A stretch of 64,000 bases of DNA from a phage, in assembly GCA_014686905.1 (NCBI GenBank), contig GCA_014686905.1_4093.1. One strand, given 5' to 3'. Under the pieces are notes generated by a model. The model was not told the DNA's origin, made no database searches, and saw nothing but the letters and a program-made list of their open reading frames with translations. The position numbers were made by a program, and so were the translations under genes. Shown in pieces: positions 482 through 36,480 of the stretch; position 1 is the first letter of the stretch, and every line of letters begins with the position of its first letter.

Positions 482-1327
482 GTGTTTGATTTCAGTGATA
501 TTAAAAATAAGTCGGTCGATGATGATGAAAAACCAACACAGCATTCTTTTTCTATTGCTGAATTTCTAAAACACATTGACCGTGCTGATTATAAGTACTA
601 TAATGACATGACCGAAAAAGAACGAAAAGAGTTTACTCCATATACTGTTTTGCGATGGGTAAGCTCTTTAGATGATTCGTTACAAGTAACCTACCCTAGT
701 AGTAAAGTTGAAAGTGTATTTGGAAAATGGAAATCTGGTGGTAAAGAAGCACTGACTGAACTAGTTACTGAATTAAAGTCTTCAGGGACAAATGTTTCAT
801 CAGTAACTAAGTACTGTCATAGTGATTATGATTGGCGTATTAAATTTGCAGTCCAATCAAAAGATGACGCACAAAAATTAATATCCTCAATGGTCGAATT
901 TGGCGTATCAGGTTCAGAAATTGTTTCATTAGTAGATACTGAAGTTGTCAAATACCAACTTATTATGCTAAATGATATGGTTAATGATGGATTTTGGGAT
1001 ATGAAAGAACATCCAGAATTAGTATATCAGCTTATGTGTTCAGTCCATGATATGATTGGTGGACAAGAAATGCCACGTAACTGGTTAAACTTTTCTAAGA
1101 ATTTCAAAAAGGCAAATAACGAATTATTTGAGTTAATTAAAAGCTCACAACCTGATACTATATCTACTCAAATGAATGAAGATGAGTACAAAATTGTTCT
1201 ATTGCAGTATGATAAAAAAACATTTGAGACATTTCTTGACAATAATGGTTTTCAAGATAATGAAAAGAAATCTATGATGAAATTGTTTAAAGAAGAATGT
1301 AAAAAATATGGCAAAGAAATCAAGTAA
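482..1327 (+). CDS. hypothetical protein
   Basis: 281-aa ORF beginning with GTG 5 nt after previous stop; no recognisable motif. Confidence 0.45.
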   Translation: MFDFSDIKNKSVDDDEKPTQHSFSIAEFLKHIDRADYKYYNDMTEKERKEFTPYTVLRWVSSLDDSLQVTYPSSKVESVFGKWKSGGKEALTELVTELKSSGTNVSSVTKYCHSDYDWRIKFAVQSKDDAQKLISSMVEFGVSGSEIVSLVDTEVVKYQLIMLNDMVNDGFWDMKEHPELVYQLMCSVHDMIGGQEMPRNWLNFSKNFKKANNELFELIKSSQPDTISTQMNEDEYKIVLLQYDKKTFETFLDNNGFQDNEKKSMMKLFKEECKKYGKEIK

Positions 1328-2018
1328 TAAAGTATATACCTGTAGATTTTGTGATCGTGAATTTAAACGTGAAGAAACTGTAAACACACATAAATGTATA
1401 AAACGTGACCGATACGAAGACCGCCAAAGCCGCCAGATGATGGAGGCTTTTCGTATATATATGCAATTTATGGAATTGAATAAGTTCCCATTTAAAAAAG
1501 GCGTAGAGCCTTTTATTGCTTTTATAAAGTCAAAGTACTTTAATGATTTTTATAGTTTTGCCGAATACTATTTGAATAATAGAGATATTATTAATGTGGA
1601 CGAGTTTGTAAAGTACTTGATTATCAATAACAAACCAATCACGGAATGGAGTACATATAAAGCAAAAGATGAATGGATATTAAAAACAATTCGTGCCGAG
1701 CACCCAAAAGAAGCAATTGCAAGAAGTGTTATCTCACTGGTTGAATGGGCTGAAAATTTGAATGTACAATGGAATACTTTCTTTGAAAATGTAAGTTCTG
1801 CCCGTGCAATTGCATGGATTGAGAGTGGTAAAATTTCACCTTGGATTATCTGGCTTGCTCCTAAAAAAAGTACTAATAAGTTTTTTAAAAAACTATCAAA
1901 CTCAGAAATTGAATATATACTTAAATACATCGATCCAAGTTATTTTGAAATCAAAACTATAAAATACAAAAAGGATTGTGATGAAATTAAGATTATGCTA
2001 TGTGAGGCAGGATTATGA
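1308..2018 (+). CDS. hypothetical protein with N-terminal C2H2-like zinc finger
   Basis: CRFC...HKC spacing near N-terminus; 236 aa. Confidence 0.45.
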   Translation: MAKKSSNKVYTCRFCDREFKREETVNTHKCIKRDRYEDRQSRQMMEAFRIYMQFMELNKFPFKKGVEPFIAFIKSKYFNDFYSFAEYYLNNRDIINVDEFVKYLIINNKPITEWSTYKAKDEWILKTIRAEHPKEAIARSVISLVEWAENLNVQWNTFFENVSSARAIAWIESGKISPWIIWLAPKKSTNKFFKKLSNSEIEYILKYIDPSYFEIKTIKYKKDCDEIKIMLCEAGL

Positions 2019-2344
2019 ATGGAAAAAGTATATATAATAAAATACCAGAAGGGTATGTACCTGTACCTAAAGAACAAAAATCAAAACAAATATCTCTACT
2101 TAGACAAGGATCTATTACTGAAATAACTTTAGATGGTAAAACATTTCAAGTTCATGATCCTGCTCGTATTGAAAAAATTATTTCTTTGGTAGAAAGACAC
2201 GAAGAACGCTTTTTCAGTTTAAGTCAAGAATTGGCAAAGACAAAACAAAATTGTAGATTATTAGAGAATCAAATATCAACTTTGACTAATACAGTTAAAC
2301 AGTTACAGGAGCAAATAAAAAATGCAGGATTCGACCGATTCTAA
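2015..2344 (+). CDS. hypothetical protein
   Basis: 109-aa ORF, 4-nt overlap with upstream gene. Confidence 0.4.
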   Translation: MNGKSIYNKIPEGYVPVPKEQKSKQISLLRQGSITEITLDGKTFQVHDPARIEKIISLVERHEERFFSLSQELAKTKQNCRLLENQISTLTNTVKQLQEQIKNAGFDRF

Positions 2345-2960
2345 ACATTATAGAAAAGCCCGAACTGATATTGACATTGACTTCAAGGATAGTAAAAGCG
2401 TAATCGCTAAACTTCCATGTGTGCGAAGTACTGAAAAAATTACGGAGGATGGTTTAATCCCCCATAATAGTGGTGTTCATTTTGATAATATACCTATTGA
2501 TCCAATCACTGGATTGGCAAGTATACAATATAAAGAAGCTGAAAGGTTAGGGTATCAAAAAGTTGATATTCTTTCACAGTCAGCTTACATGTATGTTCGT
2601 GATAGAGAGCATTTAAAAGAACTAATGAATCAGGAACCAAATTGGGATCTATTGTTAGAACCCGAAATTGTAGAACATCTATCGCAAATTAAAAAACATG
2701 TAACTTTATTAAATGTATGGAAGCCTAAATCTATAGACGAACTAGCAATGTTTATTGCAATGATTCGCCCAGGAAAAAGGCAGTGCCAAAGTATGAACAC
2801 ATGGGACGAAGTTAAAGCTACCATATGGGATTATAGTACTATAGGCACTGACCAAGCAGGAAATAAATTACGATATTTCAAAAAGCCACATGCTTACGCA
2901 TATAGCTTAATGATTGTTGTACAACTAAATGCTTTAGTTGAACATCTTACTTCTTCTTAA
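2322..2960 (+). CDS. DnaE palm-like minimal nucleotidyltransferase candidate (C-terminal part)
   Basis: Collinear motifs resembling Pol III alpha: DIDIDF (cf PDFDVDF catalytic Asp pair), YQKVDIL (cf KFDFLGL third Asp), AMIRPG (cf ALFRPGP), KKPHAYAYSL (cf NKSHSAAYAL); by-eye alignment only. Confidence 0.4.
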   Translation: MQDSTDSKHYRKARTDIDIDFKDSKSVIAKLPCVRSTEKITEDGLIPHNSGVHFDNIPIDPITGLASIQYKEAERLGYQKVDILSQSAYMYVRDREHLKELMNQEPNWDLLLEPEIVEHLSQIKKHVTLLNVWKPKSIDELAMFIAMIRPGKRQCQSMNTWDEVKATIWDYSTIGTDQAGNKLRYFKKPHAYAYSLMIVVQLNALVEHLTSS

Positions 2961-3300
2961 GAGCCACATTACGACGCTTGATGCGTTTCTGTGGCAAATT
3001 GCTTAAAGAAACTACTGGACCACATACGAAATTCACCGACGGTGTATCGAATCTCTGTGTGTACGGTTCAAATTTCTCCATCTCTTCTTGAAAGAATAGA
3101 CAAACTGGAATGGTTCTATTACTTTGCCACCACCAATCGTGTGCTATACCTAACAATTCGTCTTGCATTGAATCATCCATATCATCGAAACAGTAAAGAG
3201 TTGTATACTGTTTGCTTTTGATTTTGATGATACCAACAAACGTTTTACCATCATACTGGATTACAGTAATGAATGGTGGAATAGTGTTATATTGATTCAT
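2947..3300 (-). CDS. hypothetical protein, only minus-strand ORF in first 17 kb
   Basis: 117-aa ORF fills the 330-bp gap between + genes; weak GGAA upstream of ATG; alternative + ORF 2991..3221 overlaps. Confidence 0.3.
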   Translation of the reverse strand: MNQYNTIPPFITVIQYDGKTFVGIIKIKSKQYTTLYCFDDMDDSMQDELLGIAHDWWWQSNRTIPVCLFFQEEMEKFEPYTQRFDTPSVNFVCGPVVSLSNLPQKRIKRRNVALKKK

Positions 3301-22980: not shown

Positions 22981-24043
<1,063 letters not shown>

Positions 24044-33018: not shown

Positions 33019-33330
33019 ATGTTTAATCCGTTTTTTGACCCGTCTGGGATGACGGAGAAAGAACTACAGTTGAAAATTAATGAACAGTCAATGCGTATAA
33101 CTTCAGCCCGTGCCGCTGGTATGAGTGATATGATTATTGGTAATATGCAAACTGTGTTAAATCAATGTTATGCTGAACTAGAACTTCGTCAAGGACAAAA
33201 AGAAAAATCTGTTTATGATGAAGAAGACTCATGTATCTTCGACATGGATTCTTATCTAACTGACAATGAAGAGGCCCAGAAAAAGAAAAATGAAAGTACA
33301 AGGAAACAGATTTATAAGTCCCAATGGTGA
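33019..33330 (+). CDS. hypothetical acidic protein
   Basis: 103-aa ORF; overlaps next ORF by 65 nt. Confidence 0.3.
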   Translation: MFNPFFDPSGMTEKELQLKINEQSMRITSARAAGMSDMIIGNMQTVLNQCYAELELRQGQKEKSVYDEEDSCIFDMDSYLTDNEEAQKKKNESTRKQIYKSQW

Positions 33331-33808
33331 TGTAAAATGTAATCTTAACGCAGTAGTTTATGCAATCAATTGCGGTGCGGATATCCAGTACTTACAATTG
33401 CAGGAAATTGATGAACCTGAAAGGTTGAAATTCAATGATAACTGTAAAAAATTTGGCTTAGAACAACGTATGCTGGATTATACTATCGAGCATGATAAAA
33501 ATCATGAACTTTGGCGTTATGATCCAGTATACGATAATATAAATCTACGTGACTTTTTCTTACAAAAATGTACATCAGATGAAGCACGAAAGCGTGTTGA
33601 GTATGAACTAGATTTATATGAATATTATAATATGACAAAGCTATTAAGATGTATGATATGGCTTGTTGATTATATGGAAGAAAATGAGATCTTTTGGGGT
33701 CTAGGTCGTGGAAGCTCTGTTGCATCATACTGTTTGTTTTTGATTGGACTACATATGGTAGATTCATTGAAGTACGAACTTGATGTTAACGAATTTTTGA
33801 AATGGTAG
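33266..33808 (+). CDS. DnaE palm-like fragment candidate (N-terminal part)
   Basis: C-terminus GLGRGSSVASYCLFLIGLHMVDSLKYELDVNEFLKW resembles Pol III alpha [34 protein letters not shown]; start uncertain. Confidence 0.35.
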   Translation: MKRPRKRKMKVQGNRFISPNGDVKCNLNAVVYAINCGADIQYLQLQEIDEPERLKFNDNCKKFGLEQRMLDYTIEHDKNHELWRYDPVYDNINLRDFFLQKCTSDEARKRVEYELDLYEYYNMTKLLRCMIWLVDYMEENEIFWGLGRGSSVASYCLFLIGLHMVDSLKYELDVNEFLKW

Positions 33809-33826
33809 AAAAACATGTGATATAAT
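33797..33826 (+). promoter_or_regulatory. sigma70-like promoter
   Basis: TTGAAA-18-TGtgaTATAAT; -10 lies within an imperfect inverted repeat. Confidence 0.5.
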
Positions 33827-33871
33827 GTTTATTGTAGGCTTATATCACACATACAATAAAAGGATTTTGAT

Positions 33872-34216
33872 ATGTCTAAACATACAACTTATCGTGGTAC
33901 AACAATTGACATGGATATGCTCAAGTACCAAAATCAACATCAGGTAGCATTAGGTAATGCTAATTTAAACGCACGTGGTGATAAAATCGGTTCAGGTGGA
34001 ACAATTATTAAAACTCGTGAAGAGTTGATTCAAGAAAAAGAACGAGAAATGCAAATTCCTGATTATATCCCTGAACATCAACTTCATAGTACTGAACATG
34101 GTACGGATGAAGTATGGGATGATGAGAGTTTTGAAGTTAAGCCCGAAGAACAAGAAGCTGAGGTTTCTGAAGAGAAGAAAGCACCACGTCGAGCTAGAAC
34201 CAAAGATCAGGAGTAA
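33872..34216 (+). CDS. hypothetical protein
   Basis: 114 aa with acidic C-terminus; promoter upstream. Confidence 0.4.
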   Translation: MSKHTTYRGTTIDMDMLKYQNQHQVALGNANLNARGDKIGSGGTIIKTREELIQEKEREMQIPDYIPEHQLHSTEHGTDEVWDDESFEVKPEEQEAEVSEEKKAPRRARTKDQE

Positions 34217-34224
34217 TATATTAA

Positions 34225-34551
34225 ATGACTAATAAAGTAATGACTGCATGTAAAGGTAAAGTACTGGTAACTGAACTGGAACATGGTGAACGCAAAACAG
34301 CAGGTGGTATCGTTTTAACAAACGATGACGGTAAAATTAGAGGTATTCGTTCTCGCTGGGCAAAAGTTTATTCTGTAGGCGAAGACATTACTGATATTAA
34401 AGAAGGTCAATGGATTTTAATTGATCATGGTCGATGGTCAAGAACTATTGAAGTTGATGGTATTGAATTAAACTTGGTTGATTACCCAGCCGCAGTTAGT
34501 TTAGTTTCAGATGAAGATCCACGAACTAAAATGCTAACCTTTGGTCGTTAA
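34225..34551 (+). CDS. GroES-like co-chaperonin (Cpn10)
   Basis: GKVLVTELEHGERKTAGGIVLT matches GroES DRVIVKR..ETKSAGGIVLT; length 108 aa. Confidence 0.7.
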   Translation: MTNKVMTACKGKVLVTELEHGERKTAGGIVLTNDDGKIRGIRSRWAKVYSVGEDITDIKEGQWILIDHGRWSRTIEVDGIELNLVDYPAAVSLVSDEDPRTKMLTFGR

Positions 34552-34604: not shown

Positions 34605-34877
34605 TTGATGATAACTGATGATGGAAAATTTAGTTTCAAGGATGTAACATTAGTATCTAAAAACGGAAGATTCATGTTTGAAGATAGAAAAAATACCAAA
34701 TATGTATATGAAGTTTCACATGATATGTTTAAAGTTTTATTAGTTGCATCAGCCCAAGCTGAAAGTACTGGGATTAAAAATAAGGCAAATTCTTTTAATT
34801 TTTTATTAAATCAATTGGAAATGACAGAAGAACTTTTCACGGCTTTATTATATAATTCAGCCGATTGGATTCTATAA
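34605..34877 (+). CDS. hypothetical protein
   Basis: 90-aa ORF. Confidence 0.35.
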   Translation: MMITDDGKFSFKDVTLVSKNGRFMFEDRKNTKYVYEVSHDMFKVLLVASAQAESTGIKNKANSFNFLLNQLEMTEELFTALLYNSADWIL

Positions 34878-34900
34878 CACGTACACATAAGGAAATACAA

Positions 34901-35854
34901 ATGACCACACTATGGACTGAAAAATATCGCCCACAATCAATGGAAGATTATGTATCAAAAAACGATGCACTACGCCAGAAAATGGAAGAATGGATTAAGA
35001 CTGGTGACATTCCACATATTGGGTTTTTTGGCCCAGCAGGAACTGGTAAAACATCTGCGATCAAAGTACTAATTAATGGACTAGTTCAAAATGGACACCT
35101 TGATCCAAGTGATGTGACCACGCTTAACATGTCCGATGAAGGCATTGATGCTGTTCGTGACAAAATCGATGCCGCAGCAAAGCTATCATGTTTTGGTAGA
35201 TATCGTATTTTTGTTCTTGAAGAAATGGAGCAGATGAACCACAAAGCACAAGGTAGTTTGAAACGTGTAATGGAAGACTATCATGAAAATGCTCGCTTTA
35301 TTTTAACAAGTAACGAACCACATAAAATTCAAAAACCTATCATTTCTCGTGTTCAAGTTATTACAATCGAAAAGCATGATATGGAACAATTCATGACTCG
35401 AATTTATAATATTCTTCTAGCAGAAGGTGTTGATTTGAGTAGTGATGATAGTGTTGAACAAGTTCAAAAGTATATCAATGCTTCCTATCCTGATTTCCGT
35501 AAAACACTAAACGTATTGCAAAGTTCAGTTGTTGATGGTAAGCTAGTAAAACTTGAAGATAGTATTGAAAATTCAGCAGGGTATCGTACTGCAATTGTTG
35601 AAGCATTAAAGGCAGGAAACATTCGCCAAATGCGTGAACAAATTGTACAAAATATCCCTGATGATGAGATGGATGCATTCTTTTCTTATCTGTATCGTAA
35701 TGCTGAAATGTTCAGTACTGATGAAATCACACTGATGAAGATTAAAGTTAAAATTCGTGATGCAGTTGTTAAGCAAGCAACAGTATCAGACCGTGAAATG
35801 AATCTTAGTGCTTTACTGTGTGAGATTGACCTAATTTGTTCGGGGAACATGTAA
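34901..35854 (+). CDS. clamp-loader ATPase (T4 gp44/RFC-like AAA+)
   Basis: WTEKYRP...FFGPAGTGKTS Walker A, VLEEMEQ Walker B; track ORF 34865 starts TTG, ATG 34901 has AAGGA RBS. Confidence 0.8.
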   Translation: MTTLWTEKYRPQSMEDYVSKNDALRQKMEEWIKTGDIPHIGFFGPAGTGKTSAIKVLINGLVQNGHLDPSDVTTLNMSDEGIDAVRDKIDAAAKLSCFGRYRIFVLEEMEQMNHKAQGSLKRVMEDYHENARFILTSNEPHKIQKPIISRVQVITIEKHDMEQFMTRIYNILLAEGVDLSSDDSVEQVQKYINASYPDFRKTLNVLQSSVVDGKLVKLEDSIENSAGYRTAIVEALKAGNIRQMREQIVQNIPDDEMDAFFSYLYRNAEMFSTDEITLMKIKVKIRDAVVKQATVSDREMNLSALLCEIDLICSGNM

Positions 35855-36480
35855 TGAAACCACGTTGTATAGTTTTTGATTGTGATGAAGTTCTATTGGA
35901 CCATATGGGTATGCTTTCTGAGTTTGTAAAACAAACTTATAATATCACACCATCAACACCATACCCATTAGAATATGATTTATCAGACTGGTTGGGTGTT
36001 CCTCAACCTGAAGTTAAAAAGATTCTTGAACAGTTCAACCAACAATCATATTTGTTTGGGTTGTTAAAGCCAGTCGAACCAAATACAGTTGATATTGTAC
36101 AAGAGCTACGTGATCGTTTTCATAAAGAAAAATTCGTAGTACTCACAAAATGTGGTAAAAAAGGCTATGGTGAAGTTTTACGAAATGTAAATCTAATGCG
36201 TGAATTTGGTGAAAACTGCTTTGATGAGATTATTATCATAGAAATGAATGAATCAAAGAAAGAAGCATTAGAGGATTTACAAACACGATATGATGTAAAA
36301 CTAATGATTGATGATTATATCAATAATATTGAAACTGCTATGGGTCTTGGTATTCCATCAGTTATGATGGGATGTTCTCATAATACTATGTATAAGAATC
36401 ATAGTGGTTTTGAATATATCGAAAACTGGACAGAACTTAGACTGAAAATTTATTCAGTACTAGGTAAATATTACAAATAA
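35854..36480 (+). CDS. HAD-superfamily phosphatase-like protein (possible deoxyribonucleotidase)
   Basis: N-terminal CIVFDCDEVLLDH fits HAD motif I DxDx(T/V); ATG overlaps upstream stop (TAATG). Confidence 0.45.
   Translation: MKPRCIVFDCDEVLLDHMGMLSEFVKQTYNITPSTPYPLEYDLSDWLGVPQPEVKKILEQFNQQSYLFGLLKPVEPNTVDIVQELRDRFHKEKFVVLTKCGKKGYGEVLRNVNLMREFGENCFDEIIIIEMNESKKEALEDLQTRYDVKLMIDDYINNIETAMGLGIPSVMMGCSHNTMYKNHSGFEYIENWTELRLKIYSVLGKYYK

Follow-up and report, generated by a model that had tools for sequence, protein, structure and literature searches.

Two distant genes of a RaK2-like jumbo coliphage as the probable halves of a minimal, split DNA polymerase III alpha

The closest described system is the "minimal, split Pol III alpha" reported in 2021 by Iyer, Anantharaman, Krishnan, Burroughs and Aravind from the T4-related jumbo phages of 'group 2.2', in which distant genes encode an NTP-binding N-terminal part and a Mg2+- and template-binding C-terminal part, with a family B polymerase encoded alongside and the remaining domains of Pol III absent (PMC7824862). 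The two parts were proposed to reconstitute an enzyme for the synthesis of one strand or for repair (PMC7824862). The pair of genes analysed here, called A (N-terminal half) and B (C-terminal half), is the same entity and differs from the published one in nothing essential; the present analysis is thus an independent rediscovery of a system that is already known. Parts of it also appear in descriptions of single genomes: Buttimer et al. noted in 2017 that phage CBB has a Pol III alpha of 172 aa, the A homologue, which they called "truncated" (PMC5259590), and both the alpha and the epsilon subunit were listed for Atu_ph07 and for RaK2-like phages by Attai et al. in 2018 (PMC6102473). No bench test or experimental follow-up of split Pol III alpha was found in the literature searched, and the PaBG paper and a survey of bacterial polymerases contain nothing on it. 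What is added here is the position of the break at the level of residues (DnaE ~394/400), the statistics of the fold searches, the counts of homologue clusters with their uniform lengths, the absence of inteins, fusions and adjacency, estimates of selection, and a description of the conserved gene neighbourhoods of A and of B.

The DnaE proteins of E. coli, Thermus and Mycobacterium and the PolC of Geobacillus share with A and B the GS loop, the three aspartates, and the RPG and KSH motifs. However, canonical DnaE and PolC are single chains of 900-1400 aa with a PHP domain, full thumb and fingers, clamp-binding/HhH, OB and tau-binding parts, whereas A and B together have 384 aa and lack all of these. 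The intein-split DnaE of cyanobacteria is likewise divided between two distant genes, but there the split lies at another site and protein trans-splicing restores the full enzyme, while A and B carry no intein sequences. In Bacillus phage Edson DnaE is read as several ORFs, the first break lying just past the PDVDTD strand; the pieces (474, 315, and 280 aa) are adjacent on one strand with gaps of ~740 and ~400 bp, and together they comprise PHP, palm, fingers, HhH and OB, so that Edson DnaE is most simply an intron-containing gene and not a protein split. Among split polymerases of phages, the two-cistron gp43 of some T4-like phages is a precedent for an active site that is put together from separately encoded polypeptides. 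The multisubunit RNA polymerases of phiKZ-like phages (PMC7598289) are another. Both belong to other polymerase families and are split between domains or in adjacent genes, unlike A and B.

The window, i.e., the whole analysed stretch of 64,000 nucleotides, comes from a RaK2-like jumbo coliphage of the genus Asteriusvirus; its A and B regions share 97-100% DNA identity with those of 121Q, PBECO4, SHEFM2K, IA-38, and others, phages with genomes of ~350 kb. Atu_ph07, a phage named as a member of group 2.2, carries homologues of both genes, and from these homologues together with the T4-type polymerase, IF3 and Hsp10 we infer that the source phage belongs to the same group. According to the annotation of SHEFM2K the window is rich in replication genes, coding for primase, DnaB-type helicase, ribonucleotide reductase, Dda-like helicase, topoisomerase II, and clamp loader. 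Virion protein genes are interleaved with the replication genes in this annotation. The family B polymerase of SHEFM2K (1001 aa, PF03104 and PF00136) is encoded ~17 kb from B, past the start of the window, and its exonuclease and polymerase domains are accompanied by a T4-type replisome; in phage CBB its counterpart is cited as CBB_263 (PMC5259590). A DnaQ/RNase T-type exonuclease is encoded ~4 kb upstream of B in SHEFM2K, just outside the window, and a DnaQ-like exonuclease is conserved alongside the alpha fragment in RaK2-like phages and Atu_ph07 (PMC5259590, PMC6102473).

Genes A and B lie on the same strand, B first, 30,968 bp apart from start to start, and are separated by ~40 annotated, conserved genes, as counted in the near-identical SHEFM2K. 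Start and stop codons are separate for the two halves, each of which resides in a deeply conserved gene block of its own. The block of B begins with a gene for a zinc-finger-like protein, followed by B, a small convergent gene, and genes for a virion protein, primase, and DnaB, these neighbours being kept in 49-75 of 80 loci; B adjoins primase in 63 of the 80 and DnaB in 49. The block of A comprises a gene for a large virion protein, a small ORF, A itself, and genes for a 114-124-aa protein, a GroES-like protein, and the clamp loader, with neighbours kept in 51-76 of 80 loci and the clamp loader found near A in 51 of them. Scans for promoters and terminators gave results at chance level and so do not inform on the co-regulation of A and B.

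The ORF at 33266..33808 (+), which had been proposed in the first-pass annotation to resemble the Pol III alpha segment located just upstream of the first catalytic strand, is indeed present and ends with ...GLGRGSSVASYCLFLIGLHMVDSLKYELDVNEFLKW. Its upstream ATG at 33266 opens a 180-aa frame, but the second ATG, 8 codons further on, is the start in most homologues and most database annotations, so gene A is taken as 33290..33808 (+), coding for 172 aa. Its resemblance to DnaE goes far beyond chance. The match to Pfam PF07733 (DNA_pol3_alpha) has E=2.1e-9 and scores 37.8 bits, above the gathering threshold of 23.9. It covers positions 16-95 of the 260 in the profile and residues 100-179 of the longer, 180-aa frame. 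PHROG 11127, 'DNA polymerase', is matched with E=3.5e-87, and PHROG 11165, a 'DNA polymerase' profile of 782 positions, is likewise hit by A (positions 37-111). A profile built from 41 A sequences aligns residues 98-172 of A with about 320-394 of E. coli DnaE (hhalign E=3.2e-6), i.e., with a part of the palm, while residues 1-97 form a variable N-terminal region. In this alignment G139-R-G-S142 of A falls on G361-R-G-S364 of DnaE, and W172, the last residue, on ~P394. The letters that had been quoted for the DnaE segment were in part wrong, as E. coli DnaE reads GPGRGSGAGS and not ...SAAGS, whereas the likeness itself holds.

The GRGSS loop of A, G139-R-G-S-S143 (33704..33718 (+)), represents the GS motif of the palm of Pol-beta-type nucleotidyltransferases, and its predicted role is to hold the triphosphate of the incoming dNTP. 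G137, G139, R140, G141, S142, and S143 do not vary among 41 homologues of 31-82% identity. Modelled alone, A reaches a pLDDT of 75, with the lowest values at the GRGSS loop (<50) and in the C-terminal helices, and a fold search with this model returned noise and no fold match. Such a poor model of the GS region is what might be expected, without being proof, of an incomplete domain that gives a strand and a loop to the sheet of another chain.

Gene B, 2322..2960 (+), codes for a protein of 212 aa whose sequence is as the first-pass annotation had quoted it. The protein consists of the catalytic palm strands, a very short equivalent of the thumb, and a reduced fingers domain. The acidic motif said to stand at its very start is present, but it follows a variable leader of 15 residues, TDIDIDF occupying residues 15-21; some distant homologues begin with M-DIDIDF. 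It aligns with PDFDVDF of DnaE and PDIDIDF of M. tuberculosis DnaE1, so that the strand D16-I-D18-I-D20 (2367..2381 (+), codons read from the sequence) corresponds to D401-F-D403-V-D405 of DnaE. This strand holds the first two metal-binding carboxylates, and none of the three aspartates D16, D18, and D20 varies in 36 homologues. The third catalytic carboxylate, DnaE D555, corresponds to D82 of B (2565..2567 (+)), located in GYQKVDIL, as hhalign places B 72-152 on DnaE 545-642; K80 falls on DnaE K553, and K80, D82, and L84 are invariant in the same set of 36. Two motifs of the fingers follow. The first, R149-P-G151 (2766..2774 (+)), equals R640-P-G642 of DnaE and has R149 and P150 invariant; the Pfam DNA_pol3_finger match in this part of B is weak (E=0.045, residues 129-162). 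The second, F186-KKPHAYAY194 (2877..2903 (+)), aligns with FNKSHSAAYA of DnaE (~756-765), or FNKSHSAAYAL in its longer form, and with FNKSHAAGYGM of M. tuberculosis; H190 and Y194 are invariant and F186, K187, K188, and A191 nearly so in the 36 homologues.

B matches PHROG 11778, 'DNA polymerase', with E=2.1e-108. In sequence alone it is only weakly like DnaE (E=0.024 to 0.63), and the case is carried by the fold and the motifs. The model of B is of high confidence (pLDDT 93.2, pTM 0.80), and in a Foldseek search of this model against PDB the top 13 matches were all Pol III alpha, with probability up to 1.00. Fold searches with B placed C-family polymerases alone at the top, and ~190 of the 212 residues of B are superposable on PolC/Pol III alpha. 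Many database records label the homologues of B as "hypothetical" or "putative membrane protein".

The two proteins had been claimed to be consecutive pieces of one palm, the one ending exactly where the other begins. To test this directly, the two halves were joined in silico into one profile (17 A and 17 B sequences), which was searched against PDB sequences. It gave only nine matches, all of them Pol III alpha chains (E=1.8e-7 to 1.4e-6), and ran ungapped through the junction, profile positions 104-203 lying on DnaE 321-420 in the best of them (E=1.8e-7). The halves by themselves were less informative: single-sequence searches of each against PDB sequences brought up no DnaE chain, the A profile alone found nothing significant there, and the B profile only 5lew (E=0.63), the decisive results being those of the joined profile and the fold searches. 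When E. coli DnaE was run by tblastn against the window in full, A was the only part detected. As A ends at about DnaE P394 and D16 of B stands at D401, only about five loop residues of DnaE (395-399) lie between the halves, and the claim holds. The catalytic domain is therefore interrupted within a loop, which connects the helix region of the GS motif, retained by A, to the DxD strand, retained by B. Evidence from profiles, motifs, and fold agrees on consecutive pieces of one C-family (DnaE/PolC) palm, and profile searches assigned neither protein to an unrelated family; that A and B are the two halves of a split mini Pol III alpha we regard as practically certain.

Together A and B comprise ~384 aa, compared with 1160 aa of E. 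coli DnaE, and amount to a nucleotidyltransferase palm with reduced fingers. Present across the pair are the GS loop, three carboxylates, RPG and KSH motifs of the fingers, and the palm-plus-fingers fold. PHP, HhH (HHH_6)/clamp-binding, and OB-fold domains gave no Pfam match in A or B, while in a positive control the PHP domain of phage Edson DnaE was detected with E=7e-48. The spacing between D20 and D82 of B is 62 residues versus 150 in DnaE, which leaves the thumb of B almost absent, and B ends shortly past the KSH motif.

The separation of the two genes is widespread. At least 120 homologues were found for each, of 112-187 aa for A and 157-220 aa for B among the matches listed. An exhaustive HMMER search with the A profile of 1.84 billion cluster representatives (50% identity) yielded 468 clusters at E<=1e-30, the best 150 of which all have 156-196 aa, with the end of the profile coinciding with the end of the protein. 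The joined profile, searched against 5.8 billion proteins, retrieved 113 B-type proteins (194-220 aa) and none that spans both halves; as this search seemingly favoured B words, it excludes long fusions containing B, and the A side is covered by the HMMER search of clusters. In 80 IMG/VR loci found by A and 80 found by B, with flanks of up to 10 kb, the other half was present in none. The stop-to-stop ORFs of these loci are 189-246 aa long for B and 155-220 aa for A with one exception, and the A frame stops 0-9 aa past the EFLK motif in every case (~80 loci). The exception is a single A-type ORF of 310 aa with its end motif unchanged. Relatives were thus checked for fused or adjacent forms, as suggested in the first-pass annotation, and none was found in hundreds of homologue clusters, 160 metagenomic viral loci, and ~30 phage genomes.

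Three candidates for an unsplit relative were examined and rejected: MT836517 is an ordinary bacterial DnaE of 1156 aa on an unverified contig, Bacillus phage PK-3 carries a full-length DnaE, and the Edson pieces look intron-interrupted.

The two halves occur in nearly equal numbers over phage genera, the counts of genomes with A-type and B-type proteins being 34/34 for Escherichia, 11/11 for Pseudomonas, 8/8 for Salmonella, and 8/8 for Erwinia phages, and near-equal for others. The spacing between them is 31 kb in 121Q-like phages, ~34 kb in RaK2, GAP32, and CBB, and 44 kb in PA5oct-like phages; Stenotrophomonas phage CM1 has the shortest distance, 15 kb, and Atu_ph07 the longest, 182 kb. The gene order, reverse to the order of the protein segments as originally remarked, is kept here and in PA5oct-like phages but not in some other lineages. 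Between A and its SHEFM2K counterpart there is a 14% difference at synonymous sites and not a single nonsynonymous change; against relatives of ~80% identity the dN/dS of A is 0.07-0.08, and for B dN is ~0.12 with dS saturated. Judged from these sequence comparisons, the split is ancient and both genes are under strong purifying selection.

The reading that probably explains these data best is a split minimal Pol III alpha working as an accessory enzyme with a composite active site. Since the break lies inside the Pol-beta-type core, the sheet and the active site could be completed only by non-covalent association of A with B, and the lack of intein sequences likewise means that the association would have to be non-covalent. 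The strand and the GS loop of A would dock onto the strands of B to complete one beta-sheet, at a complementary interface that is inferred from homology to the single-chain enzyme. A would contribute helices, the first strand, and the GS loop holding the triphosphate of the incoming dNTP, while B would bind two metals via D16, D18, and D82 and provide the remaining strands and minimal fingers contacting dNTP and template, with K80, R149, K152, K187/K188, and H190 as the basic residues of the fingers. The association that completes the sheet would make the active site composite, and the invariance of each partial set of residues in its own protein makes sense only for such a site. Neither half would be active alone, and an obligate heterodimer of A and B seems likely. 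That its product is a template-directed DNA polymerase is favoured with somewhat less assurance.

As a complete family B polymerase and a T4-type replisome are present, the mini Pol III is expected to be accessory. It may act as a distributive polymerase beside the T4-type family B replicase, in short-patch synthesis or gap filling, in primer extension with hand-off, or in repair. The DnaQ-like exonuclease of the phage may assist it as a proofreader. The PHP domain, to which the epsilon exonuclease attaches in E. coli, is absent from A and B, so that a partnership with the phage DnaQ-like protein has as yet no structural basis. No polymerase is known to us that has hardly any thumb and at the same time lacks a clamp-binding region, and templated DNA synthesis by the pair is therefore presumed.

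These missing parts are also what speaks for the rival that survives best, namely that the heterodimer forms but is no template-directed DNA polymerase, and instead a nucleotidyltransferase of the Pol-beta fold with another task, engaged for example in untemplated tailing, in the making or modification of a nucleotide signal, or in modification of DNA ends or primers in phage-host conflict. The thumb is almost absent and all C-terminal DNA- and clamp-binding domains are missing; moreover, the phage already encodes a complete family B replicase, so that a second replicative enzyme is not obviously needed. However, B retains the DnaE-specific motifs of the fingers, RPG and F-K-K-x-H-A-x-A-Y, and in C-family polymerases the RPG and KxH motifs contact the incoming dNTP and the template. 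The superposition of nearly the whole of B (~190 of 212 residues) on PolC/Pol III alpha argues in the same direction, as does the location of both genes in replication blocks and not in defence or anti-defence islands. We consider such an enzyme unlikely, and give just as little weight, or marginally less, to the related view that A and B form a thumb-less, clamp-independent Pol-beta-fold nucleotidyltransferase with some other product or substrate rather than a second replicase. Were the pair not a replicase, its placement in two gene blocks could time the period in which the composite active site exists.

A further explanation is that A and B act independently with different partners, one of them, e.g., binding or interfering with the host Pol III, their complementarity being a historical trace. 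The genes are never adjacent, lie 15-182 kb apart, and belong to different conserved blocks, as such independence would allow. Yet the catalytic set is divided between the halves and still invariant in both, A and B match almost one-to-one over phage genera, and several contigs are apparently common to the match lists of the two, so that independent action is decidedly improbable.

Covalent rejoining of the halves, by a split intein, trans-splicing, or DNA rearrangement, has a precedent in split-intein dnaE genes lying far apart, those for DnaE-n and DnaE-c of Synechocystis. In the present pair, however, the tail of A (0-9 residues) and the variable leader of B (0-15 residues) are too short for an N-intein of ~100 aa or a C-intein of ~35 aa, and no intein/Hint Pfam match was found in A or B, which excludes a split intein; the ~40 conserved genes between B and A exclude an interruption of the intron type, and start and stop codons are conserved in both genes. 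The chance that the halves are rejoined covalently is accordingly negligible. Equally hard to credit is the view that a complete dnaE was once taken up from a host and is now decaying, with A and B as its remains, a view that the naming of an A homologue as 'truncated' (172 aa versus 1120 aa; PMC5259590) might suggest, but which is at odds with a dN/dS of ~0.07, invariant catalytic residues, hundreds of diverged clusters of equal length, and synteny kept in about 50-76 of 80 distant loci. Conservation, gene spacing, and the short termini effectively rule out a split intein, joining at the RNA or DNA level, and pseudogene decay.

The implications of a split enzyme were already proposed in 2021, and the value that remains is experimental. 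Should A and B prove to form a working enzyme, no smaller C-family polymerase would be known than the split minimal Pol III alpha, with its ~384 aa versus 900-1400 aa, and this enzyme would have its active site divided between two polypeptides within the catalytic fold. It would then offer a natural minimal model for the origins of bacterial replicases and for their dispensable domains, and a possible scaffold for a two-component polymerase, and it would bring family B and family C polymerases together in one phage replisome.

The surroundings of gene A (33290-33808, plus strand), which encodes the N-terminal half of the split minimal Pol III alpha and carries the GS loop, are well preserved. 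It is followed by a 114-aa ORF (33872-34216) and, as the second gene downstream, by a gene coding for a GroES/Cpn10-like protein (34225-34551, plus strand; PF00166, E=2e-5), and homologues of the two are present in 76 and 75, respectively, of 80 distant metagenomic loci from IMG/VR, the latter likewise downstream of A. Gene A, the 114-aa ORF, and the GroES-like gene form a block of striking stability. Further along the plus strand, an NT5C-type 5'-deoxynucleotidase/HAD hydrolase is encoded at 35836-36480 (PF06941, E=1e-8); its start falls within the 3' end of the clamp-loader gene (34865-35854), and it is labelled 'hypothetical' in SHEFM2K, a near-identical Asteriusvirus phage.

Gene B (2322-2960, plus strand), encoding the C-terminal half with the catalytic aspartates and reduced fingers, overlaps by 14 nt at its 3' end a convergent gene for a 117-aa protein (2947-3300, minus strand; PHROG 11637), a homologue of which is also convergent to B in 69 of the 80 distant loci collected around B homologues. 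Upstream of B, in 63/80 of these loci as in the window (1308-2018, plus strand; PHROG 11058), lies a gene whose 236-aa product bears a C2H2-like zinc-finger signature at its N-terminus and has only weak Pfam matches. The B homologues of GAP32, CBB, pEa_SNUABM_50, and Muenster are named 'putative membrane protein' or 'hypothetical protein' in GenBank; these labels are misannotations, because the fold and the motifs show a polymerase fragment.

About 2 kb outside the window, past its start, SHEFM2K carries on the minus strand a gene for a 272-aa DnaQ/RNase T-family exonuclease (206077-206895, or 1078-1896 of the stretch L163; PF00929, E=7e-15), annotated there as 'DNA polymerase exonuclease subunit' and having a short QSregVF_b match at its C-terminus. 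It could serve the mini Pol III, or else the family B polymerase, as a proofreader.

Between A and B, on the plus strand, lie genes for a translation initiation factor IF3 homologue (22981-23484; Pfam IF3_N, E=6e-16, and IF3_C, E=8e-14), known from a few T4-related jumbo phages of group 2.2 (Iyer et al., PMC7824862), and for a protein matching the ClpS adaptor family (23498-24043; PF02617, E=2e-5). The latter, named 'ATP-dependent protease' in SHEFM2K, is more likely an adaptor steering the host ClpAP than a protease.

In Bacillus phage Edson (PV796108.1; 2960-7305 of the stretch L165) DnaE is read as three neighbouring ORFs of 474, 315, and 280 aa, all labelled 'hypothetical protein', with unannotated gaps of ca. 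740 and 400 bp, probably two introns; the frame of the first ORF departs from the DnaE sequence directly after PDVDTD. The GS-loop region of A also matches positions 37-111 of PHROG 11165, a 782-position 'DNA polymerase' profile, which could represent a PHP-less yet unsplit phage DnaE, possibly an intermediate form.

The two halves also differ in their divergence among close relatives. The B region (2015-3300) is 100% identical to that of SHEFM2K, G17, Sharanji, and others, whereas the A region (33019-34300) shows only ca. 97% identity with the same phages, the differences within gene A being exclusively synonymous (pS 0.14, pN 0). This unequal divergence suggests recombination among Asteriusvirus lineages.
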